From positions 1 to 58,534 of the forward strand of contig VBOY01000072.1 in the NCBI GenBank assembly GCA_005893295.1: a stretch of DNA of 58,534 nt. Reading direction: 5' to 3'. Both the position numbers and the translations under genes were made by a program. Within the stretch, counting starts at the first letter, position 1. The number at the start of each line of letters is the position of its first letter. This stretch comes from Candidatus Eiseniibacteriota bacterium. Its GTDB lineage: Bacteria; Eisenbacteria; RBG-16-71-46. Shown here in pieces: positions 7,368-34,517 of this stretch. The notes under the pieces were generated by a model. The model did no database searches. It had not been told where the DNA came from and was given only the letters and a program-made list of their open reading frames with translations.

Positions 7368-10300
7368 CTATGACAGGTCGCTGGCAGTGCGCTCGGCAGC
7401 CCTGCGCTCGATCCGGAAACTTCGGATCTTGCTCAACAGGGTCGGATAGCTCAGACCCAGCTCGCGCGCTACGCGTGCCTTGTTCCAGCGGTTGCGCTCC
7501 AGCGATTCGCCAATCATTCGTCGCTCGAGGTTTGCGACGTTGTGGCGCAAGGTGCGCACCCTGCCCCTGTCCGCCTCGGCCGGATGCTTCTCCATCATCT
7601 CGGGAGGCAGCAAGCCGGGCCCCAGCGCGTCGCCCTCGTCGGCGAGCACCACCATGCGGCGCACCGTTTTGTCGAGCTCGCGCACATTGCCACGCCACTC
7701 GTAGATCATGAAGACCCGCATCACTTCGGGCAGGAACCCCTTCAGGGTCTTGTCCATCTGACGACTCGCGATCGCCAGGAAATGCTGGGCCAATACCGGA
7801 ATGTCCTCGCGCCGCTCGCGCAGCGCCGGGACGCGCACCGTGATGTCGTTGAGCCTGTAGTAGAGGTCCTCGAGGAAACGGCCTTGCTGGATGCGTTGGC
7901 GCAAGTCACAGCCGGTGGCGCAGATCACGCGCGAGTCGACGCGCTTGCTGCGGGTCGCGCCTACCGCGCGGATCTCGCCGCGGTCGAGCACGTGCAGCAG
8001 CTTGGCCTGGACCGACTCGGGGACTTTCTCGATCTCGTCGAGGAAGATCGTGCCTCCCTCGGCTTCCTCGAACAAGCCGGCCTTGTCCCGCACCGCGCCC
8101 GTGAAGGCACCATGCACGTGCCCGAACAGCTCGCTTTCGAGTAGCTGCTCTGGGATCGCGGCACAGTTGACGTGCAGGAACGGCCGCTCGCGACGGCTGG
8201 AGACCTCGTGAACCACTTGGGCGAGCAGGCCCTTGCCGGTGCCGGTCTCGCCCATGAACAGCACCGACGCCGGGCTGTCGCCGATCTTCGACAACAGGTG
8301 GAGGATGTCGGTCATCGCCCGCGACTGGCACACCACCCGATCCAGACCGGGGCTGGGAAGCAGCCGCTCGCGCAGCGCCTGGTTCTCCTTGAGCAGCATC
8401 GAGCGCTGCGCCTCGACGATCGCGACCGCCGCGGTGTTCGTGAACACCGCGAGCAGGTTGAGCTCGCGTTGCCGGAACGGCCCCAAGAGGTTGTCGCTCA
8501 GGCGATCGACGTAGACCACCCCCACGGATTGCGAGGGGAAGTTGAGCGGCACGCATACCAACGAGCCGACGCCCTCGAGATCGCCGCGGAGTGCGTGGAG
8601 GAACCGCGGGTCGGCCGCGACCCGGCTCGAGAACAGCGGGCCGCTCTCCCCGATCTTCGGGCCGGTGACGCGCTCGATCGAGCGCAGGATGCGCCGTGCG
8701 CGCTCGCGACCCATTCCATGCTGCGCCACGACTCCGAGCCGGACGCCGGCCGAGCTGAATGCCACGAAACCTCGATCCCCACCCGCGTTCTCGACCGCCA
8801 GCTTGACCGCTTGCGCCAACAGCCCATCCATGTCCGAGGCGTCGCGGAACAACCGGTTGGCCTCTTCGAGGGCCCGGAATTCGTTGCAGGTCGAAAGAGA
8901 CACGGCGACGTATTGCTGCTCGAGCTCGCGGCGCAGTGCTCCCGCCCGGTCCTCGGCCTTCTCGTCGCCGGCCTCGGGAAGCCAGGATTCCGCCTGCTCC
9001 AGGAGCCCGAGCGCGGCGTCGTAGTGCTCGCGCTCGGCCTCGAGCCGGGCCAGGTTGAGGATCGCTTCGGCCGCCGGCGCCAGGATGCCCAGCTCGCGGA
9101 ACAACACCGCGGCACGGCGCGCGGCTTCCGACACGGGCTCGAGGACCACTTGGACGCGCTGGCCGCCGGGCAGCAGCAGGACCAGCTCGGCCCACGCCGC
9201 CAGCGTAGTCGCCAGCTCGTAGGTCTCCTGAAGCTGCTCGAAGCATGCACAGGCGCTCTGCACCCTGGCTTCGAGCCGCCCCGCACCGCCCTGCAACGCC
9301 TCGATCCGGGCCAGGCCCCGCTCGGCCACGCCTTGCTCCAGACGATCGCCGAGGCGCCCGGCCAGCTGGGCACCGCTCATGAGGCGCGCCCGAGATTCCT
9401 CGACCCTACCGAGCTGGCCGAGCGCGATGCCGAGCCGGATCTCCAGCTCGCTCGCGAGGTCCCCTGCGGGGGCCAGCCGACGTGCTTCCTCCAAGGCCGG
9501 CTCCAGCAGGGCCACGGCGGCCCCGGGATGGCCGCGATCGATCTCGACCTCGGCCAGGAACTCACGTCCCAACAGGCTCTCGCGCACCGCCGAGACCCCG
9601 TCGGCCAGCGCGATCGCGCGGCGGAAATGCTCTTCGGCCGAGTCGAGCTGGCGGCGGCGGCGGGCGAGTCGTCCGATGGCCAAGAGCGCCGTGGCCTCGC
9701 CCTGCTGGTGGCCCAACTCCTGGGAAATCTGGAGCGAACGCCGAAAACTCTCCGCGGCGAGGTCCCATTGACCCAGGTTGAAGCGGATCAGACCCAAGTT
9801 CTGGTGGTGGCCGCGCATCCGGGAATAAAGCCCCGCGCGCTCGTCGATCTTGAGCGCTTGCTCGAGGAAACGCGTCGCTTCGCGCCACTCGCGAAGGTTC
9901 TTGTAGACCAGCCCGAGATTGTTGAGCGCCGTCACCAGGCCATCCGGATCGTCGATGCGACGGAAGGTGGCGGCGGCGTCTTGGAGCCATTCGATCGCCT
10001 CGGCGCTGCGGCCGAGGCGAGCCGCGCACAGCCCCATCGCCACCCCGACCTGCCCCACGGCCCGGTGCCGATCGGTGTTGCGCAGCACCTGGTAGGCGTA
10101 GCGCGCGTAGCGGCGAGCCTTACGGTAGAGGCCCAGCTCGACCAGCGAACGGGCCCGCTGGGCGGCCACTTCTGCCGCGCGCAGGCGGGGCTGGTCCAAG
10201 TCGCGGGCGACGCGTCGCGCGTCGGACAGGATGCGTAGGGCGGACTCGAAATCACCGCGGCGGTAGTGGGCTTCCGCCAATCGGAGCGTGATTCGGAATC

Positions 10301-10469
10301 GATCGGGCGCGGCATGGTCCGCGGTGCGAAGCGCCGCCGCGTACTCCTCCGCCGCGCCGGCGAAGTTGTCGGCCGCGAAGTACAGGTCGCCGATTGATTC
10401 GCGCCGTCCCGTGCCGTCTTTCAAAGGAAGACGCGCGTGAGTCGAATCGGGGGGGATCGCTCGATGCAC
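7368..10469 (-). CDS. Sigma-54-dependent transcriptional activator: TPR repeats + GAF + AAA+ + Fis-type HTH
   Basis: 1033 aa with a GTG start. The N-terminal half is TPR-like repeats. The AAA+ core has VLFMGETGTGKG (Walker A), GAFTGA and GGTIFLDEI. The C-terminal HTH reads ARVARELGLSYPTLLSKI. Confidence 0.85.
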   Translation of the reverse strand: MHRAIPPDSTHARLPLKDGTGRRESIGDLYFAADNFAGAAEEYAAALRTADHAAPDRFRITLRLAEAHYRRGDFESALRILSDARRVARDLDQPRLRAAEVAAQRARSLVELGLYRKARRYARYAYQVLRNTDRHRAVGQVGVAMGLCAARLGRSAEAIEWLQDAAATFRRIDDPDGLVTALNNLGLVYKNLREWREATRFLEQALKIDERAGLYSRMRGHHQNLGLIRFNLGQWDLAAESFRRSLQISQELGHQQGEATALLAIGRLARRRRQLDSAEEHFRRAIALADGVSAVRESLLGREFLAEVEIDRGHPGAAVALLEPALEEARRLAPAGDLASELEIRLGIALGQLGRVEESRARLMSGAQLAGRLGDRLEQGVAERGLARIEALQGGAGRLEARVQSACACFEQLQETYELATTLAAWAELVLLLPGGQRVQVVLEPVSEAARRAAVLFRELGILAPAAEAILNLARLEAEREHYDAALGLLEQAESWLPEAGDEKAEDRAGALRRELEQQYVAVSLSTCNEFRALEEANRLFRDASDMDGLLAQAVKLAVENAGGDRGFVAFSSAGVRLGVVAQHGMGRERARRILRSIERVTGPKIGESGPLFSSRVAADPRFLHALRGDLEGVGSLVCVPLNFPSQSVGVVYVDRLSDNLLGPFRQRELNLLAVFTNTAAVAIVEAQRSMLLKENQALRERLLPSPGLDRVVCQSRAMTDILHLLSKIGDSPASVLFMGETGTGKGLLAQVVHEVSSRRERPFLHVNCAAIPEQLLESELFGHVHGAFTGAVRDKAGLFEEAEGGTIFLDEIEKVPESVQAKLLHVLDRGEIRAVGATRSKRVDSRVICATGCDLRQRIQQGRFLEDLYYRLNDITVRVPALRERREDIPVLAQHFLAIASRQMDKTLKGFLPEVMRVFMIYEWRGNVRELDKTVRRMVVLADEGDALGPGLLPPEMMEKHPAEADRGRVRTLRHNVANLERRMIGESLERNRWNKARVARELGLSYPTLLSKIRSFRIERRAAERTASDLS

Positions 10470-10566
10470 GTTCGAACCCTCGGAATCCTGTTCTCGGCTC
10501 TCGTTGAATGCCCCCGTGGCTCGTCCGGGGACACTTCTACGACACGTGAGAGCCGCGCTCGACGAC

Positions 10567-10863
10567 CTAGAGCGCGGCTCTCAAGTACCACGCCGCCCAG
10601 ACGCTCCTGACCCGCTGGTACCACGAGCTGTGGCCTTCGCCTTCCGGGACCCGTCCCACGCGATGCCGGACCACGATCGTCTGGCCGACATCGGGATCGC
10701 CTGAAGTGATGACGGCGATCGGCCTCGGGGACGGGTTCGAGCCACCGCTTGAACCGGGGCTCCAACCGGCGGGCGGCCGCGCCTGGGCGCTACCCCAGCC
10801 GAGGGCCAGCGTTGCCATCACCAGGACAACGAAGACGAGAAGCGGGAAACGATGTTTGTTCAT
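10567..10863 (-). CDS. Small secreted hypothetical protein
   Basis: I chose the start at ATG 10863 (GGAGGG upstream). The signal peptide is MNKHRFPLLVFVVLVMATLALGWGSAQA. The track ORF extends to 10998. Confidence 0.4.
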   Translation of the reverse strand: MNKHRFPLLVFVVLVMATLALGWGSAQARPPAGWSPGSSGGSNPSPRPIAVITSGDPDVGQTIVVRHRVGRVPEGEGHSSWYQRVRSVWAAWYLRAAL

Positions 10864-13226: not shown

Positions 13227-13348
13227 TTGGCGCTCCCCCGCTTGGCATGGGCCGCCGTCGACCAGCAGCGGGAGCACGCGACGAGTGAGGCCATTCATGG
13301 GGACCCCGCGAGGGAGCGTCGTCCCCGCGGGTCGTCGCCGAATCCAGG

Positions 13349-14878
13349 ATGACGCTCCGCGCGCGTCTCGTGGTGGCGTTCCTGGCGCTGGCCCTGGTGC
13401 CGACCGCCGCGCTCACCTGGCTCACCCTCGATCGTCTCGACCGCACCATGAGGATGTGGAGCACGCCGGGGGTCGAGCACACGCTCCAGTCGGCTCTCGA
13501 GATGAGCAAGTCCCTGGTGACCCGCCTCGAAGCGACGGTGACCGCCCAGGCCCAGGACTGGGCCCAGGCGCTCCCTCCGGGGCCGCTGAATGAGCCCCGC
13601 CGCACCGCGATCCGCATCGGCCTGAGGACCGCCGGCCTCGACTTCGTCCAGGTCTATCAGCTGCATGGAGACGGCTGGCGCCTGGTCGAGGAGGTGCGCC
13701 CCCCGGGAGTGCTCGCCGCCGTCCCGCTCGACCTCTCTTCGGACCTGCCGGCCGCTCTGGCCTCGGATCGTCTGGTGCGGTCGCGGCGCGGAGCGCTGGC
13801 CGGCGTGTCGCCAGCCGATTCGGGACGAGCGGTCGTGGCGGGTCTCCACGTCAATCCCGATTTCTTCGACCAGATCCAACGGGTCGGCGAGGGTGTGGGC
13901 TTCTACCGCCGATTCTCCGTGGTGCGCGACGTGTCGCGAATCTACCTGCTGCTGCTGGTCTTCGCCGTGGCGTTGACGCTCTCGGTCCTGGCGTTGTGGG
14001 TGGCCACGGCGCTCGCGCGCGGCATGACGCGTCCCTTGCACCGGATCGAGGACGCGCTCGAGCGCGTTGCGGCCGGTGACCTCGAAGCCCGGGTCGCGCC
14101 TGCCGGCGCCGCCGAGATGCGCGCTCTGGCGCAGCGCTTCAACGCCATGACCGAGCGATTGGCGGGGGCGCGCCTCGCACTCCAGGAAGCCGAGCGCGAG
14201 GCGGCGTGGCGAGACGTGGCGCGCCGGCTGGCGCACGAGTTCAAGAACCTTTTGACGCCCATGTCGCTCTCGCTGCATCGTCTGCGGCGCCGCGCCGGGG
14301 CGGTGCCGGAGAACGAGCGCGTCGCGGTCGACGAGAGCTTGAAGGCGCTGTCGCAGAGCGTGGACCAGATGGCGCGCCTGGCCGAGCAGTTCTCGCAGTA
14401 CGCGCGGCTCCCCGAGCCGCGCTTCGAGCGGATCGACCTCGGCGAGGTGACGCGGGCGGCGGTGGCGCTGCATGAGCACGAGGGGATCACGATCGTGGTG
14501 ATGGGGGACGATCCGACGCCGGTGCGCGGGGACGGCTTGCTGTTGTCGCGCGCGATCCACAACTTGGTGCTCAACGCCTGCGAGGCGAGCGAGCCGGGGG
14601 CGACGGTCGAGCTGCGGGTCACGGCGCGGGGGGGCGAGGCCATGGTCGAAGTCCTGGACCGCGGCAGCGGGCTCGATCCCGAGGTCGAGCCTCGGCTGTT
14701 CGAACCCTACGTGAGCACGAAGCGGCGCGGCAGCGGTCTTGGCTTGTCGCTGGCGCGGGACATCGCCGGGCAGCACCGGGGCACGGTGCGGCTCGAGAAC
14801 CGGGAAGGCGGCGGGGCGCAGGCGCTGCTGCGACTGCCGCTCGACGAGGAGGGCGGCCCTTGGACCGCGAGCGCATGA
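13349..14878 (+). CDS. Membrane sensor histidine kinase (NtrY-like)
   Basis: 509 aa with two hydrophobic segments and a HAMP-like linker. H-box LAHEFKNLLTPM. ATPase boxes NLVLNACEA, DRGSGL and GSGLGLSLA. Confidence 0.85.
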   Translation: MTLRARLVVAFLALALVPTAALTWLTLDRLDRTMRMWSTPGVEHTLQSALEMSKSLVTRLEATVTAQAQDWAQALPPGPLNEPRRTAIRIGLRTAGLDFVQVYQLHGDGWRLVEEVRPPGVLAAVPLDLSSDLPAALASDRLVRSRRGALAGVSPADSGRAVVAGLHVNPDFFDQIQRVGEGVGFYRRFSVVRDVSRIYLLLLVFAVALTLSVLALWVATALARGMTRPLHRIEDALERVAAGDLEARVAPAGAAEMRALAQRFNAMTERLAGARLALQEAEREAAWRDVARRLAHEFKNLLTPMSLSLHRLRRRAGAVPENERVAVDESLKALSQSVDQMARLAEQFSQYARLPEPRFERIDLGEVTRAAVALHEHEGITIVVMGDDPTPVRGDGLLLSRAIHNLVLNACEASEPGATVELRVTARGGEAMVEVLDRGSGLDPEVEPRLFEPYVSTKRRGSGLGLSLARDIAGQHRGTVRLENREGGGAQALLRLPLDEEGGPWTASA

Positions 14879-16215
14879 GCCGACGAACGCGACTGGACGT
14901 GCTGGTGGTGGACGACGACCCGGACATCCGCCGCACCCTGCGGGGGGTGCTCGAAGACGAAGGGCACGCGGTGGCCGAGGCCGACAACGGCCCGCGGGCG
15001 CTGGCCGCGCTCGAGGGGCGGCGCTTCGACGTGGTGCTGCTGGACGTCAAGATGCCCGGCATGGACGGGCTCCAGGCGCTCGACATGATCCGCGAGCAGG
15101 CGCCGAGGACCGGCGTGATCATGGTCTCGGGCGAGAGCACGATCTCGACCGCGGTGCAGGCCATCAAGCGCGGTGCGTTCGACTTCATCGAGAAGCCGGT
15201 GGACCCGGACCAGCTGCTGGGCGTGCTCAGACAAGCGGCGCAGGTGACCGAGCTGAGAGAGAGCCCGGTCACGCACTCCGGCGAGCTGGGAATCGTCGGT
15301 CGCAGCCCGGCGATCGCCGCGCTGATCGCCGACATCAAGCGCGTCGCTCCCTCGAACGCCAAGGTGCTCATCACCGGCGAGAACGGCTCGGGCAAGGATC
15401 TGGTGGCCGAGGCGATCCACCGACTCTCGAAGCGGTCCGAGCGGCCGTTCGTCAAGCTCAACTGCGCGGCGATCCCCAAGGACCTGGTGGAAAGCGAGCT
15501 GTTCGGGCACGAAAAGGGGGCGTTCACGGGCGCGGGGCAGCGCAAGCAGGGCCGGCTCGAGCGCGCCGACGCAGGGACGCTGTTCCTCGACGAGATCGGC
15601 GACCTGTCGAGCGAGTCGCAGGCGAAACTGCTGCGCGCCATCGAGACCGGAGAGGTCGATCGCATCGGGGCCACGGAAACGATCCGCGTCGACGTGCGGA
15701 TCCTCTCGGCCACCAACAAGGATCTCGCGACGGCGATGGATTCGGGAGAGTTCCGTCGCGATCTCTACTACCGCCTGAGCGCGCTGCCGCTGCACGTGCC
15801 GCCGCTACGCGAGCGGCGCGCCGACGTGGCGCTGCTGGCGGAGCACTTCCTCGCCGCCTTCTGTGCCAGCGAAGGTCGGCCTCAGAAACGGCTCACCGCA
15901 GAGGCGTCCGCGCTGCTGGAAGAATACCGGTGGCCCGGCAACGTGCGCGAGCTGAAGAACCTCATGGAGCGAGCGGCGATCCTGGTGGACGGGCCCGAGG
16001 TGCGCGGGGAGGATTTGGCGGCGTGGCTCGAAGCCGGCCCGCCGACAACCGACGCCGCCGGGCTGCGTGGCGAGATCGAGCGTCGCGAGGCGGAGGCGAT
16101 CCGCAAGGCTCTCGAGGGGGCGGGTTGGAACGTGACCCAGGCGGCAGCGGGGCTCGGGATCGATCGCACCAACCTGCATCGAAAGATGCGCAAGTACGGT
16201 CTGGCGCGGCGCTGA
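14875..16215 (+). CDS. Sigma-54-dependent response regulator (NtrC/NtrX family)
   Basis: Receiver domain (VLVVDDDPDI ... LLDVKMPGMDG), AAA+ domain (GENGSGKD, GAFTGA, TLFLDEI) and a C-terminal HTH. ATG 14875 overlaps the kinase stop (ATGA). The track ORF starts at 14860. Confidence 0.85.
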   Translation: MSRRTRLDVLVVDDDPDIRRTLRGVLEDEGHAVAEADNGPRALAALEGRRFDVVLLDVKMPGMDGLQALDMIREQAPRTGVIMVSGESTISTAVQAIKRGAFDFIEKPVDPDQLLGVLRQAAQVTELRESPVTHSGELGIVGRSPAIAALIADIKRVAPSNAKVLITGENGSGKDLVAEAIHRLSKRSERPFVKLNCAAIPKDLVESELFGHEKGAFTGAGQRKQGRLERADAGTLFLDEIGDLSSESQAKLLRAIETGEVDRIGATETIRVDVRILSATNKDLATAMDSGEFRRDLYYRLSALPLHVPPLRERRADVALLAEHFLAAFCASEGRPQKRLTAEASALLEEYRWPGNVRELKNLMERAAILVDGPEVRGEDLAAWLEAGPPTTDAAGLRGEIERREAEAIRKALEGAGWNVTQAAAGLGIDRTNLHRKMRKYGLARR

Positions 16216-24765: not shown

Positions 24766-25694
24766 TCATCCGCTCTTCCGGTCGTCCCCCATGCCGCCGG
24801 ACGGCGGCTCCCCGGGCAGCGCGGGCGCGCGCAGCGGTGGACGTCCCGCCGCCTCTTGGACGTCGGCCGCGCGTTCGGCGCGCACCCAGGCGAAGAACAC
24901 CACGGTCATGACGACCCAGTAGAAGAGCCCGCCCGGGACCCACATGATGAGCCCACCCAGCTTCTGATCGTCGAGCGGGCTCAAGCCCCAGACGCGCGGC
25001 GCCGCGCTGTACCAGGGGTAGAGCACGACGTCGGCAAGGGTGATGAGCGCGGCCACGAACATCATCGGGATCCCGATCAGGAACAGATAGATCATCGTTC
25101 CCCCGGGTGACATGCGCGGGAACTCGGGGAGCGGGCTCAGGATCGGCCACCACATGATCATCGCGGTCACCATGAACTGCAGGTGCGTGACGATGTGGAC
25201 CGCGTGGTTGCGCATCATGAGGTCGTAGGCGGGCTGGAGATGCCAGCCGGTGAACGACAGGCTGTAGACGGTGAACGCCACCACCGGACGACGATCTGGA
25301 CCCAGCGCGGCCGGGTCAGCGGCCGCAGCGCGAACGCAGGCGTCCCGAGCAACAAGAGAGGCGGCGTGAGCTGGGTCAGCATCAGGTGCTGCACCATGTG
25401 GACGCTGAACAGATAGGTGTCGCTCAGGTCGTGGATCGGCCCGTTGAGCGCCAGGAACGTCGCGATCAAGCCGGTCGCGAAGGACGCGATCTGCCATCCC
25501 GACACCTTCTCCAAGGGCGCGGCGCGGTGGCGATAGGGTCCGATGGCGTAGGCGTAGAGGATCGCCAGCACGCCCAAGCCGATGATCGTGCTGTCGTGGC
25601 TCTCCCATCGCCGCCAGTCGTACAGCGGCACCGGGCGGCCGAGCCGCTCGAGCGCGGATCGAACCAACAGCGAATCCGGGATGTGGAGGATCAA
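24766..25694 (-). pseudogene. ctaG: Cytochrome c oxidase assembly factor CtaG (caa3_CtaG family), frameshifted as assembled
   Basis: The N-terminal half is in track ORF 25215-25694 (..HMVQHLMLTQLTPPLLLLGTPAFALRPLTRPRW). The C-terminal half is in track ORF 24766-25608 (RRPVVAFTVYSLSFTGWHLQPAYDLMMRNHAVHIVTHLQF...). The frame switch is near 25285-25300. Confidence 0.65.
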
Positions 25695-25704
25695 ACGGAG
25701 CAGG

Positions 25705-26019
25705 TCAGAAGACCCCGAAGAGCTTCATGAGCGCAATGATCACGAGCACGGCGAGCGAGATCGGGAGCACGAACAACCACGAGAACAAGCGATGGTCGAA
25801 CTTGAGGTGCATGTAGAACATCGCCACTAGCGCGAACTTGAGCGTCGACAGGGTGAGCAGCACGGGCACCAGCACCGGGTGCATGGCGGGGATGTAGAAC
25901 ACCGCGACCTCGACCGCCGTGATCACGGTCAGGACCACCGCGATGGCGAGGTACTCCTTGCCCTTCGGGTGCGCATGCTCGGCGGGATGGCGATCCGTCG
26001 AGTGCTGGTGATCGGTCAT
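25705..26019 (-). CDS. ctaF: Cytochrome c oxidase subunit IV (small 3-TM subunit)
   Basis: 104 aa with three hydrophobic helices, immediately downstream of subunit III. Confidence 0.65.
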   Translation of the reverse strand: MTDHQHSTDRHPAEHAHPKGKEYLAIAVVLTVITAVEVAVFYIPAMHPVLVPVLLTLSTLKFALVAMFYMHLKFDHRLFSWLFVLPISLAVLVIIALMKLFGVF

Positions 26020-26032
26020 GCTCCGTCTCTTC

Positions 26033-26638
26033 CTATTGGATCAGATAGATCAACGTGAAGATCGCGATCCACACCACGTCGACGAAGTGCCAGTAGAGTC
26101 CCGCGATCTCGACGTCGAGCGACTTCTCCTGCGGCAGCTTGCCGCGGATCGCGAGCGTGAACAAGGTCCACAGCCAGATCACCCCGATCGTCACGTGAGT
26201 GCCGTGGAACCCGGTGAGCACGTAGAACGTGCAGCCGAACAGATTCCCCTGCAGCTTGAGCCCGTCGTAGAAGAAGTGCGTGAACTCGTAGCACTGGCCG
26301 CCGACGAAGGTCATCCCGAGCAGCGCGGTGGCCGCCAGCCAGCCGGCGGTGCCGCGCCGGTCGCCATGCTGGCAGGCCGCCAGCGCCAGCACCATGGTGA
26401 GGCTGCTCATCAGCAGCACGAAGGCGCTGAACGAGGTGAACGGGATGTTCAGGACCTCGTGCGGATGGGGTCCCACGGTGTCGCGGCCGCGGTACACCAG
26501 GTAGGTCGCGATCAGTGAGCCGAAGAACATGCACTCCGAGCCCAGGAAAGCCCAGAACAGCATCTTGCGGCTGCTGAGCCCGGTGCTCGTAGGGTGCTCT
26601 TCGTGCGGCGCGGGATGCACGGCGGCGGCGACGGCCAC
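26033..26638 (-). CDS. ctaE: Cytochrome c oxidase subunit III
   Basis: 201 aa, multi-pass membrane protein with the subunit III pattern (..FWAFLGSECMFFGSLI.., ..YWHFVDVVWI..). Confidence 0.85.
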   Translation of the reverse strand: MAVAAAVHPAPHEEHPTSTGLSSRKMLFWAFLGSECMFFGSLIATYLVYRGRDTVGPHPHEVLNIPFTSFSAFVLLMSSLTMVLALAACQHGDRRGTAGWLAATALLGMTFVGGQCYEFTHFFYDGLKLQGNLFGCTFYVLTGFHGTHVTIGVIWLWTLFTLAIRGKLPQEKSLDVEIAGLYWHFVDVVWIAIFTLIYLIQ

Positions 26639-26806
26639 GTCAGAATCCTCCCAAGGAACGGGGATGGGTTATCGAGAATGGGCGAGCGGCAAGGCACCCG
26701 CGGCAGCGGGTCCGGCGCGGGAGCGGCGAGCGAGACGGTATCCGCCAGGATACGTCGCAGCGAGCCGCAACCGACGCAACGCAGCAGATACCCATTCTCG
26801 GCCGCC

Positions 26807-28624
26807 TCAATGGCATGGTTCGAACGCCCACGAGTAGAGACCCACCAACATGATGAGCAGGCCCGGAATGCCGAACCACCAACCGAAGATCATCCCCGAC
26901 ATGAGGAGCGCGATCCCGAGCGCGGCGACCGCCGGCCAGTACGAGCTCGGCGGCATGTGAATCGGCCCGCGGACGCGGTTCACGTCCTTGATCAAGTCGC
27001 TCGCGTCGGCTTCCCACAGCGGGTGCACACTGTGGACGGTCGGGATGCTGGCGAAGTTGTAGGCCGGCGGCGGCGAGGGAATCGCCCACTCGAGGGTGGC
27101 TCCACCCCACGGATCGCTCCCCGTGGTCTCGCCCGACCGCACACTGCGCAAGAAGTTCACGATGAACACCAGAGTCGCGATCACGATCGCGAACACGCCT
27201 ACGGTGGAAATCATGTTCATGGTGTCGAAGCCGAGACCGGGCGCGTATGTGTAGACGCGTCGCGGCATCCCGAGCAGGCCAACGAAGTGCATCGGGAAGA
27301 AGGTGACGTTGAGCGCGATGATGTTGAGCCAGAAGTGGATCTGCCCGAGCCGCTCGTCGAGCAGGCGCCCGGTGATCTTGGGGAACCAGTAGTAGATCCC
27401 GGCGAAGATCCCCATGATGGCGCCGCCGAAGAGCACGTAGTGGATGTGCGCGACCACGAAGTAGGTGTCGGTCTGCTGGAGATCCGCGGGTGGCGAGGCG
27501 TGCATGACGCCGGAGAGTCCGCCCATGATGAACATCGCGATGAACCCCACCGCGAACAGCATCGCCGTCTTGAGCTCGACCCGGCCGCCCCACATCGTGG
27601 CGATCCAGTTGAAGATCTTCACGCCGGTGGGGATGGCGATGAGCATGGTGGTGAGGGCGAAGAACGAGTCCGCGATCGGTCCCAGCCCGACCGAGAACAT
27701 GTGGTGGCTCCAGACCCCCCACCCCATGAAGCCGATGAAGATGCCCGAGTACACCACGACCGGGTAACCGAACAGAGGCTTCCTCGAGAACGTGGGCAAC
27801 ACCTCGGAAACGATCCCCATCGCCGGCAGGATGAGGATGTACACCTCGGGGTGACCGAACAGCCAGAACAAGTGCTGCCACAGCACCGGGTCCGCCCCGC
27901 TGGCGGGAACGTAGAAGTTGGTGCCCACGAAACGGTCGAACAGCAGGAACACCAGGGCCACGGTGATCACCGGGAACGCCAAGATGATCAGGAAGGCGGT
28001 CACCAGCGTCATCCAGGCGAAGACCGGCATTCGCATGAGCTTCATGCCCGGGGCGCGCAGGTTGATGATGGTGACGATGAAGTTGAACGCTGCGGCGAGC
28101 GACGAGATGCCCAGGACCTGCAGGCCAATCGCCCAGAAGTCGACCCCATGGCCGGGCGAGAACTGCTTCGACGTCAAGTTCGAGTAGCCGAACCAGCCGG
28201 TGTCCGGTGCTCCGCCCAGGAAGAAGCTCAGGTTGAGGAAGATGCCTCCGAGCAGGAACACCCAGTAGCTGAACGCGTTGAGCCTCGGGAACGCGACGTC
28301 GCGCGCGCCGATCTGGAGCGGAATGATGAAGTTGAAGAAGCTGGCCGAGAGCGGCATCACGGCGAGGAAGATCATCGTCGTCCCGTGCATGGTGAACAGC
28401 TGGTTGTAGAAGTCGGGACTGACGAACGTGTTCTCGGGGCGCGCGAGCTGGATGCGAATGAGCAGAGCTTCGAGCCCGCCGATCAGGAAGAAGAGAAACG
28501 CGGTGACGCCGTAGAGCACCCCGATCCGCTTGTGGTCGACCGTGGTGATCCAGCTCCACACCCCCGCCGCGAAGCTCGTGCGGGTTCCGGTCGCGACGCC
28601 GACGGGTGCGGTCGTGGTGGCCAT
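26807..28624 (-). CDS. ctaD: Cytochrome c oxidase subunit I
   Basis: 605 aa with the heme-copper oxidase motifs ..MIFLAVMP.., WLFGHPEVYILILPAMG and ..HHMF... Confidence 0.95.
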   Translation of the reverse strand: MATTTAPVGVATGTRTSFAAGVWSWITTVDHKRIGVLYGVTAFLFFLIGGLEALLIRIQLARPENTFVSPDFYNQLFTMHGTTMIFLAVMPLSASFFNFIIPLQIGARDVAFPRLNAFSYWVFLLGGIFLNLSFFLGGAPDTGWFGYSNLTSKQFSPGHGVDFWAIGLQVLGISSLAAAFNFIVTIINLRAPGMKLMRMPVFAWMTLVTAFLIILAFPVITVALVFLLFDRFVGTNFYVPASGADPVLWQHLFWLFGHPEVYILILPAMGIVSEVLPTFSRKPLFGYPVVVYSGIFIGFMGWGVWSHHMFSVGLGPIADSFFALTTMLIAIPTGVKIFNWIATMWGGRVELKTAMLFAVGFIAMFIMGGLSGVMHASPPADLQQTDTYFVVAHIHYVLFGGAIMGIFAGIYYWFPKITGRLLDERLGQIHFWLNIIALNVTFFPMHFVGLLGMPRRVYTYAPGLGFDTMNMISTVGVFAIVIATLVFIVNFLRSVRSGETTGSDPWGGATLEWAIPSPPPAYNFASIPTVHSVHPLWEADASDLIKDVNRVRGPIHMPPSSYWPAVAALGIALLMSGMIFGWWFGIPGLLIMLVGLYSWAFEPCH

Positions 28625-28633
28625 GGGTCTCCT

Positions 28634-29659
28634 CTACTTGAGGCTCTGGAGATACGCCACGACCGCGGCGATCTGGTCGGGCGCGAGCCCGAGCTTGGGC
28701 ATGATGGAGCCGGGTTTGCGCACCGGCGGATCCTGGATCCACTTAGCCATCTCTTCCGGCGTGTTCGGGTACAGGGCCCCGGCGAGCGAGGTGCGCGTTC
28801 CGACGTGGGTCAGGTTGGGACCGATCGTGCCGGGCGAGATCCCGGCGATGGTGTGGCACGCGACGCAGCCCGCGGTCAAGAAGACCTGCTTGCCCTTGCC
28901 CGCCAGCGAGGTCGAGTCGGGCTCGACCGGCGGACGCTTCTGCGCTGCGACCCAGGCCTCGAAGTCCTCGCGGGACTGGACCATGAGCTTCATCCGCATG
29001 TTGGCGTGCGAGACCCCGCAGAACTCGGCGCATTGGCCGGGGAACGTCCCGATCTTCTCGGGCGTGAACCACATCGCATTCGTGTGCGTCGGGATGACGT
29101 CGCGCTTCCCCCCCATCGCCGGGAACCAGAAGCTATGGATGACGTCCGCGGTCTGGAGGGAGATCGCCACCGGCTGTCCGATCGGCACGTGCAGCTCGCT
29201 CGCGGTCGTGATGTCGAGCCCCGGGTACTGGAATTCCCACCACCATTGATGGCCCACGACCTTGACTTCGAGCGCGCCAGCGGGTGGCTTCGATTGGGTC
29301 TTGAAGATCGTCACCACGGTCGGCACCGCGATGAACGCCAGGATGACGGCCGGCGCGATGGTCCAGCCGATCTCGAGACCCGTATGTCCGTGGGTCATCT
29401 TCGGCTCGGGGAGTCCGGGGCGGTTGCGGAAGCGCACCACGGCCACCACCAGTGCTCCTTCCACGAGCACGAAGATGACCACCACCCAGAACATCAGGTC
29501 CTCGAGCAGGCGTTGAATTTGGGAGGCGTAGTCGGCCTGCGGGTGCAGTGAGCTCTGGGGAAACTGTCGTAGCGTGCACCCCAACGACAGCAGCGGCAGC
29601 AGGACCAGAAGTGCCGAGATCGATCGCAGGAACCGCGTTCCGCGCGCGGAAGCCGCCAA
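28634..29659 (-). CDS. ctaC: Cytochrome c oxidase subunit II with a fused C-terminal cytochrome c domain (caa3-type)
   Basis: 341 aa with the CuA motif CAEFCGVSHANM and a C-terminal heme-c motif CVACH. Confidence 0.9.
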   Translation of the reverse strand: MAASARGTRFLRSISALLVLLPLLSLGCTLRQFPQSSLHPQADYASQIQRLLEDLMFWVVVIFVLVEGALVVAVVRFRNRPGLPEPKMTHGHTGLEIGWTIAPAVILAFIAVPTVVTIFKTQSKPPAGALEVKVVGHQWWWEFQYPGLDITTASELHVPIGQPVAISLQTADVIHSFWFPAMGGKRDVIPTHTNAMWFTPEKIGTFPGQCAEFCGVSHANMRMKLMVQSREDFEAWVAAQKRPPVEPDSTSLAGKGKQVFLTAGCVACHTIAGISPGTIGPNLTHVGTRTSLAGALYPNTPEEMAKWIQDPPVRKPGSIMPKLGLAPDQIAAVVAYLQSLK

Positions 29660-29777
29660 TGCGCTCTCCTCAGTTCGGCGTGCCCTCGAAAAAGACCGCG
29701 CGGCACGCTACCACGGGCCGATGGCGAAGTGAAGGGATGAGATCGCGCGGGGGGCGCGCAGCCCGCCTCGCCGCGCG

Positions 29778-30671
29778 TCACCTTCCGATCGCAGCGTCCA
29801 CGGTCAGCACCAGGAACAGAACGAACAGGTAGACGATCGAGAAACGGAACAGCTGGACGGCATGCGGGATGGCTCCAGTGCGCCACAGCCGCAGCGCGTA
29901 GTGGACGAACGCCGCGCCCAGCGCCAGCGAGCCGATCGCGTAGATCGGGCCCGCCGCCCGGAGCGGCACCAGCGCCAGTGAGACCGGGATCAGCGCCAAG
30001 GTGTAGATCACGATCTGCCGCCGGGTCTCGGGCTCGCCATGGGTGACCGGCAACATCGGCAGGTTTGCGCGCAGGTAGTCGTCGCGGCGATAGAGCGACA
30101 GCGCCCAGAAATGAGGAGGCGTCCAGAAGAAGACGATTGCCGCGAGCAGCACCGCGGGAAGTCCGACGTGGCCGGTGACCGCCGCCCAGGCGATCAATGG
30201 CGCCGAGGCGCCGGCTCCGCCCCCGATCACGATGTTCTGCGGCGTGCGCCGCTTGAGCCACGCCGAGTACACCACGGCGTAATAGAAGATGGACGCCATC
30301 GCGATTGCGGCCGCGAGCAGCTGGGTCCAAGTCACCAGGACCCACCAGGCCAGGGCGCCGAGCGTCACGCCGAGGGCAACGGCGTGGTATGGCGCCAGCA
30401 GGCCCGAGGGCAGCGGCCGGTCGCGGGTGCGCCTCATCACGGCGTCGATGTCTCGATCGACGTAGTGGTTGAAGCTCGCCGCCGAGGCCGCGGCGAGCGC
30501 GACCCCGGCCAGCGCGCCCCAGAACACGCCAGGAGCCGGCAGGCCGTGTGCCGCCATGAGGAGCGCCGGCAGCCCGGTCACCACCACCAGAGAGACGATG
30601 CGCGGCTTGGTCAGCTCGAGGTAGCCGAGCGCCACCCGGCGCGCGGCGGGGCGGGCGACGGTGGCGCTCAC
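29778..30671 (-). CDS. ctaB: Protoheme IX farnesyltransferase (heme O synthase)
   Basis: UbiA-family motifs LELTKPRI and NHYVDRDIDAVMRRTRDRPLPSG. I chose the start at GTG 30671, which overlaps the ctaA stop (GTGA). The track ORF extends to 31016. Confidence 0.85.
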   Translation of the reverse strand: MSATVARPAARRVALGYLELTKPRIVSLVVVTGLPALLMAAHGLPAPGVFWGALAGVALAAASAASFNHYVDRDIDAVMRRTRDRPLPSGLLAPYHAVALGVTLGALAWWVLVTWTQLLAAAIAMASIFYYAVVYSAWLKRRTPQNIVIGGGAGASAPLIAWAAVTGHVGLPAVLLAAIVFFWTPPHFWALSLYRRDDYLRANLPMLPVTHGEPETRRQIVIYTLALIPVSLALVPLRAAGPIYAIGSLALGAAFVHYALRLWRTGAIPHAVQLFRFSIVYLFVLFLVLTVDAAIGR

Positions 30672-31591
30672 GGGGCCGCCGCCGCGAGCATCCGCTCGCT
30701 CACCGGGAGCATCGCCGAGCGGCAGGTGGCGGTCACCAGCAGCGCCAAGATCGCGGTCGCCGTCGCCAGGTGCGCGGCGGAGAGCCACCACGGTGTGCCG
30801 AGCAGCACGTTCATGATGCCGATCATCACCTGGACTGCGGTGAGCGTGAGCGCCAAGAGCGTCCCACGCCGCACTCCCAGATCGGGCGCCGACCAGCCCT
30901 GCGTCGCCGCCCACAGGACCAACGGCACCAAGGCGTACGCGCCGTAGCGGTGCGCCATGTGGAGACCCACCAGCCCGCGCAGCGGCGGCAGCCACTCGCC
31001 GTTGCAGGTCGGCCAATCAGGGCACGCGAGCCCGGCGTGGTTCGCGCTCACCGTGGCGCCGAGCAACGCCTGCCCGAAGGTGCCGATCGCCGCGAGCGCG
31101 CAGGACGGCAGCAGCCACGTCGAGCGGGCGGGGCGCGGCTCGGGGCTGGCCTCGGCCCGGGCCCCCACCGTGAGCACGATCAAGGTCGAGAACAGCAGGA
31201 GCGCCACGCCGAGGTGCGCCGCGACGACGCTCGGGTCGAGCAGCTTCCACACCGTGAGCGCGCCCAGCACGACTTGCACCACGAGCAGTCCGACGCACAG
31301 CAGCGCCACGCCGCCCAGGCGGGCCCGCACCTCGCGGCGGGCCACGATCCACGCCACGGTGGCGAACAGCAGCACGCTCACCATCAGCGCAACCAGCCGG
31401 TGAAGCCACTCGACCAGCACGTTGAACTGGAGCGGCGGAATCAGGCGTCCCTGGCATAGCGGCCAGTCGGGGCAAGCGAGCCCGGAGCCGGTCGTACGGA
31501 CCACCGAGCCGATCACGATCAGCCCGAACATGACCAGCATCGTGGTCAGCGTGAGGCGCGAGGCGATGCGAAACGACTGGGTGGGGGTCAC
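30668..31591 (-). CDS. ctaA: Heme A synthase (COX15/CtaA family)
   Basis: Duplicated motifs GSGLACPDWPLC and HAGLACPDWPTC in a multi-TM protein. I chose the start at GTG 31591 (GGAGAA upstream). The track ORF extends to 31774. Confidence 0.8.
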   Translation of the reverse strand: MTPTQSFRIASRLTLTTMLVMFGLIVIGSVVRTTGSGLACPDWPLCQGRLIPPLQFNVLVEWLHRLVALMVSVLLFATVAWIVARREVRARLGGVALLCVGLLVVQVVLGALTVWKLLDPSVVAAHLGVALLLFSTLIVLTVGARAEASPEPRPARSTWLLPSCALAAIGTFGQALLGATVSANHAGLACPDWPTCNGEWLPPLRGLVGLHMAHRYGAYALVPLVLWAATQGWSAPDLGVRRGTLLALTLTAVQVMIGIMNVLLGTPWWLSAAHLATATAILALLVTATCRSAMLPVSERMLAAAAP

Positions 31592-31663: not shown

Positions 31664-31692
31664 TTCAGAATGGGACTCGACGCTAGCATAAT
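31664..31692 (+). promoter_or_regulatory. Candidate sigma-70 promoter for the OsmC-like gene
   Basis: TTCAGA-N17-CATAAT, with AAAGGAG 4 nt before ATG 31773. Confidence 0.4.
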
Positions 31693-31772
31693 GCCCGTGG
31701 TTTGCAACCCGTCCGACGCGGCGAGCCGAGTCCGGAAGCCCGGAATGGTGTCCGTCGCGAGAAAGGAGTCGC

Positions 31773-32234
31773 ATGAGCCCATCCTTCTACGACGCGCAGG
31801 CAACGGTGCACAAGATCCAAGGGCTCCATCGTCGCGCCACGATCGCCACCGGAGTCACGATGGAGTTGGGCGTTCATGGACCGATCAAGGACTTCTACCG
31901 ACTCTCGCCCGAGCGCGACTTGCCGCTCCCGGTCGACTACATCGTCGCCGCCACCGGCGGCTGAATGCTGGGAACCCTCAACGGCGCACTGGAGGTGCGC
32001 CAGGTCCGGCTGGATCCCGACGCGATCGCGGCCGAAGTGGTCGGAGCTCACGAGGTACGGGAAGGCCTCCCGGTGCTGCGCGAGATCCGGATCCGGTACC
32101 GCTTGCGGGTGCCGGCGGCCGCGCGCGAGACGGTCGACCGCGCGCTCGCTCGTCACCAAGACAAGTGCCCGACGGCGGCCTCGCTCAAGGGGGCGGTCGA
32201 AGTGAGCTGGACCGCCGAGATCGAAGAGGTCTGA
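31773..32234 (+). CDS. OsmC/Ohr-family peroxiredoxin-like protein with an in-frame UGA (31962-31964) at the active-site Cys position; probable selenoprotein
   Basis: Track ORFs 31773-31964 and 31965-32234 are contiguous and in the same frame, separated only by TGA. Joined they give 153 aa: ..PVDYIVAATGG-U-MLGTLNGALE ... HQDKCPTAASL. This matches OsmC topology with its two conserved Cys positions. Confidence 0.6.
31971..32007 (+). promoter_or_regulatory. SECIS-like RNA hairpin downstream of the in-frame UGA
   Basis: Upper stem GGCGCAC / GTGCGCC (31983-31989 / 31995-32001) with loop TGGAG. A possible lower stem is GGAACC / GGTCC. The loop G lies about 27-29 nt after the UGA. Confidence 0.45.
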
Positions 32235-33269
32235 CTGGGCGCGCCGACTCGACCCGACTCGGATCGCGAGGCGATCCGCTACTGCTGGTCGGCGCTGCCG
32301 CGCGTCTCGCGCACGTTCGCGCTCAACATCCGCCTGCTGCGCGGCACGCTCGGCGACGCGGTTTGCATCGGCTACCTCTTGTGCCGTGCCGCCGATGCGC
32401 TCGAGGATTCGTGGCCGGGCGATTCCGACGCGCTGCGCGAACGCTTCGCGAGGCTGCTCTCGTCGTTCACCGGGGACCGTGCGGCCGCGGCCGACCTCGC
32501 GGCGCGCGCCGCGTCCCAGCCGCCGCGCGACGATCTCACGTTGGTCGCCCATCTCCCCCGCGTGCTCGCCGCGCTCGAGCGCCTGCCCGAGGCGCATCGC
32601 GCCGCAGTCGTCTGCGGAGCCACCACTCTGGCGCGCGGCATGTCCCGCTACGCGACCCGCGCCGCGGGGCGCCCGCGCGAGGCCCCCTACCTCGACACCG
32701 AGGCCGAGCTCGAAGACTACTGCTTCGTGGTCGCGGGGTGCGTGGGCGTGATGCTGACCGAGCTGTTCGCCGCCGAGGAAGGGGCCGGAGACCGCGCGAC
32801 GCACGCTCGGCGCCTGGCCCTGGCCCCGGCGGTGGGCCGCGCGCTTCAGCTCACGAACATCCTGCTCGACTGGCCCGCGGATCTCAGACGCGGTCGCTGT
32901 CACCTGCCGGCCTCGTGGCTCGCCGAGCACGGCCTCGCTCCCCATCAGCTCGTGGGTGCCGCCACGCGCGCGACCGAGTCGCTGGCGCGGCGGCTGGAAG
33001 AGAAGGCGCGCGAGGCGTTGGCCTCGGTCCCCGACTATGTGGAGTCGATCCCGGGCCGCTGCGTCCGGTTCCGCCTCTTCTGTTTGTGGCCCGCCTTGTG
33101 GGCGCTGGGGTCGCTCGAGCACGCGCGGCGCGATCCGCATTTTCCATGGGGGCCTGAACGACCGCGCTTGCCGCGACGCGCGTTGCTCGGGTCCGCCGTG
33201 GGCTCGCTCGTCTTGCAGCCGGCGGCGCTGTCGAGCCTGCGCGGCGCGATCCGCGGCGGGCGAGCCTAG
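32235..33269 (+). CDS. Squalene synthase-like (FDFT1/ERG9-type) farnesyl-diphosphate farnesyltransferase family protein; the 5' end is unresolved
   Basis: Motifs YCWSALPRVSRTFALNIRLL, AVCIGYLLCRAADALED, YCFVVAGCVG and NILLDWPADLRRGR. The conserved N-terminal motifs lie upstream of the first canonical start (TTG 32379), and the frame is open back to the osmC stop. Confidence 0.7.
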   Translation: MGAPTRPDSDREAIRYCWSALPRVSRTFALNIRLLRGTLGDAVCIGYLLCRAADALEDSWPGDSDALRERFARLLSSFTGDRAAAADLAARAASQPPRDDLTLVAHLPRVLAALERLPEAHRAAVVCGATTLARGMSRYATRAAGRPREAPYLDTEAELEDYCFVVAGCVGVMLTELFAAEEGAGDRATHARRLALAPAVGRALQLTNILLDWPADLRRGRCHLPASWLAEHGLAPHQLVGAATRATESLARRLEEKAREALASVPDYVESIPGRCVRFRLFCLWPALWALGSLEHARRDPHFPWGPERPRLPRRALLGSAVGSLVLQPAALSSLRGAIRGGRA

Positions 33270-34517
33270 CCCAGCTTCTCGGTGAGCACCGGCTCGGTCG
33301 TCCTTCCGGCCTCGCGCGCGGCGATCACGCGCAGGCGGTACGCCACCCACAGCGCTCCTCCGAGCAGCACGATCCCCGAAAGGCTGGTCGCGACCGGCGC
33401 TCCGAAGCGCTGGGCGATCGCGCCCGCCGCCAGGGATCCGAGCGGGGCGGTGCCGATGAACATGAGCGTGTAGAGGCTCATCACTCGCCCGCGCAGGCGG
33501 TCCTCGGTGGTGAGCTGGAGCAGCGTGTTGGTGCTCGCCACATAGAGGATGAGCCCGAAGCCAGCCGCGAAGCCCATCGCCAACGTGAGCGGCATCGATC
33601 GCGACCAGGCGAACACACCCATCCCCACGCCGGCCGAGGCGAGCCCGACCAATAGGTTGCGGCGCAGCCTCCAGCGATCGAGCCGCCTGGTCATTGCCAC
33701 CGCCGCGAGCAGCGATCCCAGGCCGAACGCCGACACCATCAGCCCGTAGCCCTCTGCACCCGCGTGCAGGATCTGGCGCGCGTAGACCGGAAGCAGCAAC
33801 GTGTACTGAAAGCCCAAGCCGCAGGTGACGCCGAGCGTAGCGCACCCCTTCGCCCAGGGTGGAAAGGGTGCTCGCCGTGCGGGGAACTTGGCGTGACGGC
33901 AGCTCCATGCGCGCGAGCGCGATGATCACGGCAACGAACGAGAGCGCGTTGAGCCAGAAGCACGCCGCCTCGCCGGCGCTCGCCACCAGCAACCCGGCCA
34001 CCGCCGGCCCCAACACGCGCGCGACGTTGAAGGCGGCCGAGTTGAGCGCGATCGCGTTCGACAGATCCTCCTTGCCGACCAGCTCGACCAGGAACGATTG
34101 GCGCGCCGGGAGATCGAAGGCGCTGATCGTGCCGAACACCAAGGCGAGACCGAGCACCATCCACGGCCTCACCACACCAGCGCTCACCAGGGCGGCGAGC
34201 GTAGCGGCCTGCACCAGCGCCCAGCTCTGCGTGATCAGGATGAGTCGACGCTTGTCCATCCGATCGACCACCACGCCCGCCCACAGCGAGAGCAGCATCA
34301 CCGGCAGGAACTGGGTGAAGCCGAGCAGCCCGAGCATCAAGGCGGAATTGGTGAGTCGGTGCATGAGCCAGCCCTGGGCGACGCTCTGCATCCACGTGCC
34401 GACGAGCGACAGCAACTGTCCGGTCCAGAAGAGTCGGAAATTGCGATGCGAAAGCGCGCGAAAGCGGCCGCGGAGAGCGGCCATCGAGACTTCCACGCTA
34501 GGTCGTCCCTTCGCCAC
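33266..34517 (-). pseudogene. MFS transporter (EntS/MFS_3-like), frameshifted as assembled
   Basis: The N-terminal half is the first ~210 aa of track ORF 31683-34517 (..FRLFWTGQLLSLVGTWMQ..). The C-terminal half is track ORF 33266-33817 and its upstream extension (ATLGVTCGLGFQYTLLLPVYA...). The frame switch is near 33833-33842. Confidence 0.7.

Follow-up and report, generated by a model that had tools for sequence, protein, structure and literature searches.

Does a TGA triplet in the middle of an OsmC-family gene end the protein, or does it encode an amino acid? The question is raised by positions 31773–32234 of contig VBOY01000072.1 (GenBank assembly GCA_005893295.1, Candidatus Eiseniibacteriota bacterium), a stretch of 58,534 nucleotides to which we refer, at its full length, as the window. 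At this locus two open reading frames (ORFs) of the same frame follow each other with only the triplet between them, and a hairpin lies downstream of it. An initial annotation, made from the DNA alone, had proposed a peroxiredoxin with selenocysteine (Sec) in place of a catalytic cysteine. Our comparative analysis supports this proposal through the Cys column of the family, the conservation of the TGA, the covariation of a selenocysteine insertion sequence (SECIS) and the specificity of that element for TGA forms; together with the structure of the gene and a genomic link to selA, these are direct observations. We put at roughly 0.93 the probability that the locus is, as the sequences indicate, a true OsmC-family gene that encodes Sec and has a conserved SECIS.

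Gene structure and family assignment

The reading frame opens with the ATG at 31773, runs to the in-frame TGA at 31962–31964, continues in the same frame and closes with a terminal TGA at 32232–32234, so that nothing but the triplet parts the two ORFs, as had been reported. The codon count (63 codons, the TGA and 89 further codons) agrees with the annotated length of 153 residues for the joined protein. The triplet is embedded in the peptide YIVAATGG-(TGA)-MLGTL, and the second conserved Cys, likewise recognized at the outset in a DKCP motif, is retained at codon 132 (coordinates of all features are collected in Table 1). With Cys substituted for the stop, the joined protein scores 43.3 bits (E 5e-11) against Pfam OsmC (PF02566), which exceeds the gathering threshold of 27.5 bits and places the protein in the OsmC/Ohr superfamily. 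The match spans the TGA, covering residues 51–146, and the triplet therefore interrupts the OsmC domain itself.

Conservation of the TGA and of the Cys/Sec column

In a protein search 1,509 relatives were found. Among the 120 best listed, 25 are full length (152–161 residues) and 95 are C-terminal fragments of ~89–101 residues, which cover only the C-terminal 58–66% of the query and mostly begin at MLGTL; fragments of ~89 residues are exactly what gene callers yield from a gene with a conserved internal TGA. The full-length homologs among those listed have Cys at the TGA column (GGCMLGTL) in 24 cases and Gly in one (P0012). The claim that the TGA occupies the column of the N-terminal reactive Cys of OsmC/Ohr proteins is borne out by these 24 sequences and by the AGC motif of Thermus thermophilus OsmC (1ukk). 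One database entry, P0033, has Trp at this column, the TGA having probably been translated with another code by the source.

At the DNA level, a scan of one genome per species, from which 80 loci were kept, found TGA at the column in 80/80. A metagenome scan seeded with Cys forms and intended as a control collection gave another 80 loci, 77 with TGA and three with TGC. TGA is present in 157 of these 160 independent loci from other assemblies and phyla, which answers without recourse to reads the earlier concern that TGC or TGT had been miscalled as TGA, and it is kept in relatives with protein identity down to ~48%. The 80 genome loci derive from Eisenbacteria, Gemmatimonadota (including Palauibacter and Longimicrobiales) and Acidobacteriota, with the addition of one metagenome-assembled genome (MAG) labelled Gammaproteobacteria; all carriers of the TGA form are uncultured MAGs or metagenome contigs.

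Both flanks of the triplet are conserved in frame. In tblastn alignments the relatives match residues 1–153 of the window protein in a single frame across the TGA, and the 36 codons upstream contain no in-frame stop in 145 distinct TGA forms. The entropy of these codons by position (0.90/0.85/1.32) makes third positions the most variable, and judged by this pattern the part upstream of the TGA is coding. TGA is also the terminal stop in 103/152 of these genes, that of the window included; being the usual terminal stop, the codon is not reassigned genome-wide. Such comparisons exclude that the TGA is a miscalled base, that the gene is a pseudogene or that the genetic code is a variant one. Two marks of a selenoprotein gene, an in-frame UGA aligned with the Cys of homologs between conserved flanks and UGA-containing orthologs in other organisms, are both found in the sequences compared.

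The hairpin downstream of the TGA

The hairpin GGCGCAC-UGGAG-GUGCGCC starts 18 nt past the TGA and places its loop G residues 27, 28 and 30 nt after it, in agreement with the perfect 7-bp stem and the loop G at ~27–29 nt that had been annotated. The published model of the bacterial SECIS (bSECIS) specifies an apical loop of 3–9 nt on a stem of 4–16 bp; a G in the first two loop positions, usually in the pattern N1-G-(G/U)-N-N2 with N1 and N2 pairing; 16–37 nt from the UGA to the loop; and a minimum free energy (MFE) of −7.5 kcal/mol or lower (PMC13188914). The window hairpin has a 7-bp stem, a 5-nt loop U-G-G-A-G whose U can pair with G, a spacing of 25 nt from UGA to loop and a local MFE of −14.5 kcal/mol, and hence agrees with the model on all four counts.

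To assess covariation, 142 distinct TGA forms were aligned without gaps; the six core pairs are 99–100% paired in them. Compensatory change is seen at pair 23–39 (GC 109, GU 18, CG 15), pair 26–36 (CG 135, GU 4, UA 3) and pair 27–35 (AU 92, GC 34, GU 15). The covariation score is 0.248, compared with 0.123 in shuffles, none of 500 of which reaches 0.248, and with at most 0.078 in slid registers; RNAalifold independently recovers the identical stem from the same forms. A seventh pair (22–40) is confined to sequences whose next codon is CAR; the window is one of them. Changes at the amino-acid level preserve the stem, Gly-Ala…Val-Arg being replaced by Ala-Ala…Val-Arg(CGG), Gly-Gly…Ala(GCU)-Arg or Gly-Val…Ala(GCA)-Arg. 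The SECIS check that the initial annotation called for thus comes out in its favor, with a fit to the published model, compensatory covariation and, as described below, specificity to TGA forms.

With the bSECIS consensus (bSECISearch; Escherichia coli fdhF type) the window element shares a stem-loop located within the coding sequence after the UGA and a loop that fits the pattern N1-G-G-N-N2. It has no sequence similarity to fdhF, and it differs from the model in that only the short upper stem is conserved in the OsmC family, whereas the lower stem predicted for the window is not. From the geometry and covariation of the hairpin we infer that UGA-64 would be recoded as selenocysteine. When the ribosome reaches the UGA, the hairpin at 31983–32001 would serve as a bacterial SECIS; the apical loop, which contains GG and starts 26 nt after the UGA, would recruit the SelB-GTP-Sec-tRNA(Sec) complex, which would insert Sec at UGA-64 in competition with release factor 2 (RF2).

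Codon choice in Cys forms

Ten Cys-form DNAs, i.e., the three TGC metagenome loci and seven single look-ups, were available for comparison. Where the peptide GALEVR is encoded in TGA forms (n = 99), Ala is GCA in 93 and GCG in 6, Leu is CTG and Val GTG in all 99, and Arg is CGC or CGT in all 99, whereas the Cys forms with this peptide (n = 7) use GCG for Ala in all 7, CTC for Leu in 6, GTC for Val in 2 and CGG or CGA for Arg in 4, choices that break the stem or remove the GG of the loop. The full set of six core pairs is present in 155/158 TGA forms and in 3/10 Cys forms. Fisher tests, which ignore kinship among the sequences, give p values of 4e-9 for Leu, 7e-8 for Ala, 7e-6 for Arg and 2e-8 for the core pairs. 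GCA, the prevalent Ala codon of the TGA forms, is rare in the genes of the window, where only 4.7% of Ala residues are encoded by it. The Cys forms are scattered among the TGA forms in six or more clades, so that the codon contrast does not originate from one event. By this comparison the hairpin is specific to TGA forms.

Linkage to selA

In the metagenome locus L136, the terminal TGA of a selA gene and the start codon of a TGA-form OsmC gene share nucleotides in the sequence ATGA. This selA was first matched by tblastn with an approximate E. coli SelA query; its identity rests on TIGR00474 (520 bits, cutoff 268). The order DinB-selA-OsmC, in which OsmC is divided into ORFs of 63/64 and 89/92 residues, is found again in L169 and on an 82-kb JGI contig of P0128 (coordinates L136:47-1965 and L169:1708-4135), and in L139 and L151 the OsmC gene is preceded by a partial selA 3' end. 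In these related contigs selA and the TGA-form OsmC gene apparently belong to a single operon. No role of selA is known except in making Sec-tRNA(Sec).

The closest named relatives of the L136 SelA come from Candidatus Eisenbacteria MAGs. The selA of one of these relatives (L171, DASXQT010000082.1) is held in the same Eisenbacteria MAG (whole-genome shotgun set DASXQT01) as a TGA-form gene (L049, DASXQT010000015.1). Every named relative of the enolase encoded in the window is labelled Eisenbacteria, with identity of up to 84%, from which the window DNA itself is probably Eisenbacteria-like. At a further selA locus, in a related contig (L168:7001-10202), the gene is followed, instead of by OsmC, by overlapping genes, with the domains 2-thiour_desulf (PF04463) plus DUF1722 and the domain DUF72, a set with a possible link to selenium or thio-nucleoside metabolism.

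Weighing the alternatives

Several observations weigh against Sec insertion at UGA-64. None of selA, selB, selD and tRNA-Sec was found in the 58.5-kb window, just as the initial annotation had stated for sel genes: a tRNA scan returned tRNA-Met only, and Pfam scans of ~40 window ORFs gave no SelA, SelB or SelD domain. Neither selB nor selD nor tRNA-Sec was seen in any relative locus obtained (171 loci were scanned for tRNA-Sec); tblastn of the related loci with an approximate E. coli SelD query gave no match, and selB was not found near selA in L168, L170 and L171. Only selA of the Sec machinery is documented, and only in relatives. The 60-nt fold of the window sequence taken by itself has z = −1.1, with 27/200 shuffles folding as well or better, although in DNA of 69% G+C single-sequence folding is uninformative and significance comes from the comparative data. 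No Rfam family was matched at gathering or permissive thresholds, which says little because the element lies inside a coding sequence. Furthermore, the Fisher and shuffle tests take no account of relatedness, the Cys-form DNAs number only 10, the carriers are all uncultured, and the case for Sec insertion is one from sequence.

The rival explanations fare worse. An artefact of sequencing or assembly, or a nonsense mutation that recently made a pseudogene of an ordinary Cys-type OsmC gene, is scarcely conceivable as the source of the TGA. The window does have one or more apparent frameshifts close by, as at ~33828–33835 in the MFS gene, so that errors or decay are possible in this assembly in general; however, the TGA recurs at the same column in 157/160 loci from different assemblies and phyla with both flanks conserved in frame, and recurrent error or parallel pseudogenization at one codon is not credible. 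A true stop would give polypeptides of 63 and 89 residues, the second translated by termination-reinitiation at UGA-AUG, and thereby a split OsmC-like protein without the first Cys. This arrangement, which we consider very unlikely, would account for the ATG directly after the TGA in every TGA form and for the annotation of the 89-residue ORF as a protein by gene callers. The Met is, however, equally conserved in Cys forms (CMLGTL), so that the ATG is not a start-codon adaptation, and no Shine-Dalgarno-like motif precedes the internal ATG at 31965. Moreover, a split protein would have lost its first active-site residue, yet the remaining active site is conserved, and the TGA-specific GG-loop hairpin at SECIS distance and the selA operon would be left unexplained.

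An equally small chance is given to read-through of the UGA without Sec, by a near-cognate or suppressor tRNA or by lineage-specific reassignment to Trp, Cys or Gly, with the hairpin acting merely as a stimulator. The Trp at the column in P0033, the Gly in P0012 and the failure to find tRNA-Sec, selB or selD in the DNA of the relative loci obtained could be taken in its favor. Reassignment conflicts, however, with the use of TGA as terminal stop in 103/152 of these genes and in many window genes, and the residue replaced is a redox-active Cys, the classic partner of Sec in Sec/Cys pairs. The match of the hairpin to SelB-type bSECIS geometry and loop pattern, and the translational coupling of selA to the gene in several contigs, likewise argue for Sec as the residue at UGA-64.

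Predicted fold and catalysis

An AlphaFold model of the full-length joined protein has a predicted local distance difference test score (pLDDT) of 96.9 and a predicted template modelling score (pTM) of 0.89. In Foldseek comparisons the model aligns over ~150 columns to solved OsmC/Ohr structures (2onf, 6ebg, 1nye, 1ukk) with template modelling (TM) scores of 0.65–0.83, and the 63 residues upstream of the TGA are therefore part of the fold. In the model, residue 64 is located between helices 53–62 and 66–75, and Cys132 between helices 115–131 and 133–138. An alignment of the family profile with T. thermophilus OsmC (1ukk) matches the U64 column with the AGC motif and C132 with the CP motif. The protein is thus predicted to have an OsmC fold with two active-site positions, one of them in a CP motif.

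The fold is in common with OsmC peroxiredoxin (E. coli 1nye/1qwi, T. thermophilus 1ukk) and with Ohr (6ebg, 1n2f), and the active-site positions correspond, AGC to GGU and CP to CP; the window protein differs in that it is only 12–22% identical to the solved OsmC/Ohr proteins and is expected to have Sec where they carry Cys. By homology to OsmC/Ohr, Sec64, in place of the first (presumed peroxidatic) Cys, would reduce the hydroperoxide, Cys132 of the CP motif would resolve the resulting selenenic acid as a selenenylsulfide, and a dithiol donor would reduce the selenenylsulfide bond. By this analogy the OsmC selenoprotein would be active as a hydroperoxide reductase. The best explanation of 31773–32234 is that it encodes one 153-residue OsmC-family thiol/selenol peroxidase.

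Relation to known OsmC selenoproteins

OsmC-like selenoproteins were described from the Sargasso Sea on the basis of three sequences, assigned to COG1765/YhfA and PF02566 and characterized by a UxxT motif (Zhang, Fomenko and Gladyshev 2005; PMC1088965), and they are still included in reviews of 2022 (PMC9312934) and 2026 (PMC13188914). The statement in the initial annotation that such proteins had been reported is accordingly correct, and the window gene belongs to a kind of selenoprotein that is already known. The Sargasso family and the clade of the window gene have in common an OsmC fold, Sec at the position of a redox Cys, a SECIS immediately 3' of the UGA and the existence of Cys homologs. 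There are also differences. The window clade reads U-M-L-G-T (UxxxT), with Thr one residue further than in UxxT; its best profile matches are to OsmC proper (1ukk, TIGR03562), whereas the Sargasso family was assigned to COG1765; and it is found in MAGs of Eisenbacteria, Gemmatimonadota and Acidobacteriota, whereas the Sargasso family was described from marine sequences. Representatives of the published OsmC-like selenoproteins are AACY01145085, MBR72571.1 and MCS5647933.1.

Among NCBIfam models, the best match is to OsmC_like_Se (NF041052; E 3e-6), over residues 50–149 and nearly the whole model, however, the score of 27.2 bits is well below the curated cutoff of 95. The protein also falls outside the OsmC peroxiredoxin subfamily TIGR03562 (16.4 bits, cutoff 85.8). 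NCBI names the truncated 97-residue ORF of one relative (P0092) merely 'OsmC family protein'. In the literature library searched, no relevant work on selenoproteins of Gemmatimonadota/Gemmatimonadetes or Eisenbacteria was found, and neither of these phyla nor Acidobacteriota is named in the 2026 review (PMC13188914).

In a neighbor-joining tree, which has neither support values nor an outgroup, Fitch parsimony assigns Sec to the midpoint root and counts at least seven changes to Cys or Gly. Most members of the clade appear to have Sec, which, as the tree suggests with less force, is probably ancestral, with several independent replacements of Sec by Cys. We tentatively propose, while rating it as somewhat short of probable, that the window gene represents a distinct OsmC selenoprotein clade that has not been separately described: one outside the curated model, with Sec as the majority and probably ancestral state lost to Cys at least six times, carried by phyla of soil and sediment that are largely aerobic and bear oxidases (Eisenbacteria, Gemmatimonadota, Acidobacteriota), and translationally coupled to selA in one lineage.

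Genomic context

The OsmC gene is divergent from ctaA, and a promoter candidate lies in the intergenic region of ~180 bp between the two (Table 1). Downstream of the OsmC gene follow a squalene/phytoene-synthase-like gene and an MFS transporter gene. A Cys-form ortholog (L161) has the same neighbors as the window gene, by which the Sec and Cys forms are orthologous; in both, a complete ctaA-ctaB-cytochrome c oxidase-ctaG cluster is divergent from the OsmC gene (L161:1-5881 in the Cys form). A divergent ctaA also occurs at Cys-form loci and constitutes the largest flank class, with 14 of the 80 genome loci; a universal gene neighborhood was considered and rejected, since the flanks vary across the 80 species. 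Co-regulation of the OsmC gene with aerobic respiration is possible in view of this arrangement.

Table 1 Features of the OsmC locus and its surroundings in the window
Feature	Position	Strand	Basis
OsmC-family selenoprotein gene (probable), complete	31773..32234	+	153 codons, U at codon 64
Shine-Dalgarno-like AAAGGAG	31762..31768	+	4 nt 5' of ATG 31773; read from sequence
In-frame UGA, probable Sec codon (residue 64), at the first active-site (presumed peroxidatic) Cys position	31962..31964	+	Homolog alignment, TGA conservation
Putative bacterial SECIS core: 7-bp stem (31983–31989 with 31995–32001) and apical loop UGGAG (31990–31994)	31983..32001	+	bSECIS criteria, covariation
Cys132 codon (HQDKCPTA), presumed resolving Cys	32166..32168	+	Nearly invariant in family; aligns with CP motif of OsmC 1ukk
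Sigma-70-like promoter candidate TTCAGA-17-CATAAT	31664..31692	+	Consensus scan, 1 site vs 0.1 expected
ctaA (heme A synthase, COX15-CtaA), divergent from OsmC gene	30668..31591	-	tblastn with L161 CtaA, ORFs
ctaA-ctaB-coxBAC-ctaG cluster, ctaA at head	25215..31591	-	ORFs

The MFS_3 transporter gene (33269–34517, reverse strand) is split between two frames with a break at ~33828–33835: by tblastn, residues 40–257 of the L161 ortholog lie in frame −2 and residues 268–458 in frame −3, which reflects either an assembly indel or a real frameshift or pseudogene. Very long antisense or out-of-frame ORFs (31683–34517 on the reverse strand and others, of up to 985 residues) were rejected as genes and are artefacts of the 69% G+C content; third-position G+C separates the real window genes from them. 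Elsewhere the window encodes two sigma-54-dependent activators, a 1,070-residue TPR-GAF-AAA+ protein (7368–10580, reverse strand) and a response regulator adjoining a HAMP histidine kinase (13289–16215, forward strand).

Implications

The known principles of Sec decoding are unchanged by this OsmC selenoprotein clade. Its consequences are for annotation and for evolution. Most of the ~1,500 database relatives are apparently stored as fragments of ~89 residues, to judge from the 95 of 120 listed, and a clade that is widespread in uncultured soil and sediment bacteria is thus routinely mis-annotated as a truncated protein. Reading the UGA as Sec would restore a full-length enzyme in Eisenbacteria, Gemmatimonadota and Acidobacteriota and would mark the genomes as those of selenium users. 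Sec and Cys orthologs occupy one locus, as in the window and L161, and their codon usage reveals the cost of maintaining a SECIS inside a coding sequence; the clade may be of use in studies of Sec/Cys exchange and of the limits that a SECIS sets to protein sequence, as exemplified by the swap from Ala-Val to Val-Ala that preserves the stem.

The selA-OsmC operon, together with the heme A synthase and cytochrome oxidase neighborhood, hints at a peroxide defence tied to aerobic respiration. Given its translational coupling to selA in one lineage, the OsmC selenoprotein may be a principal client that keeps the Sec machinery in these genomes.

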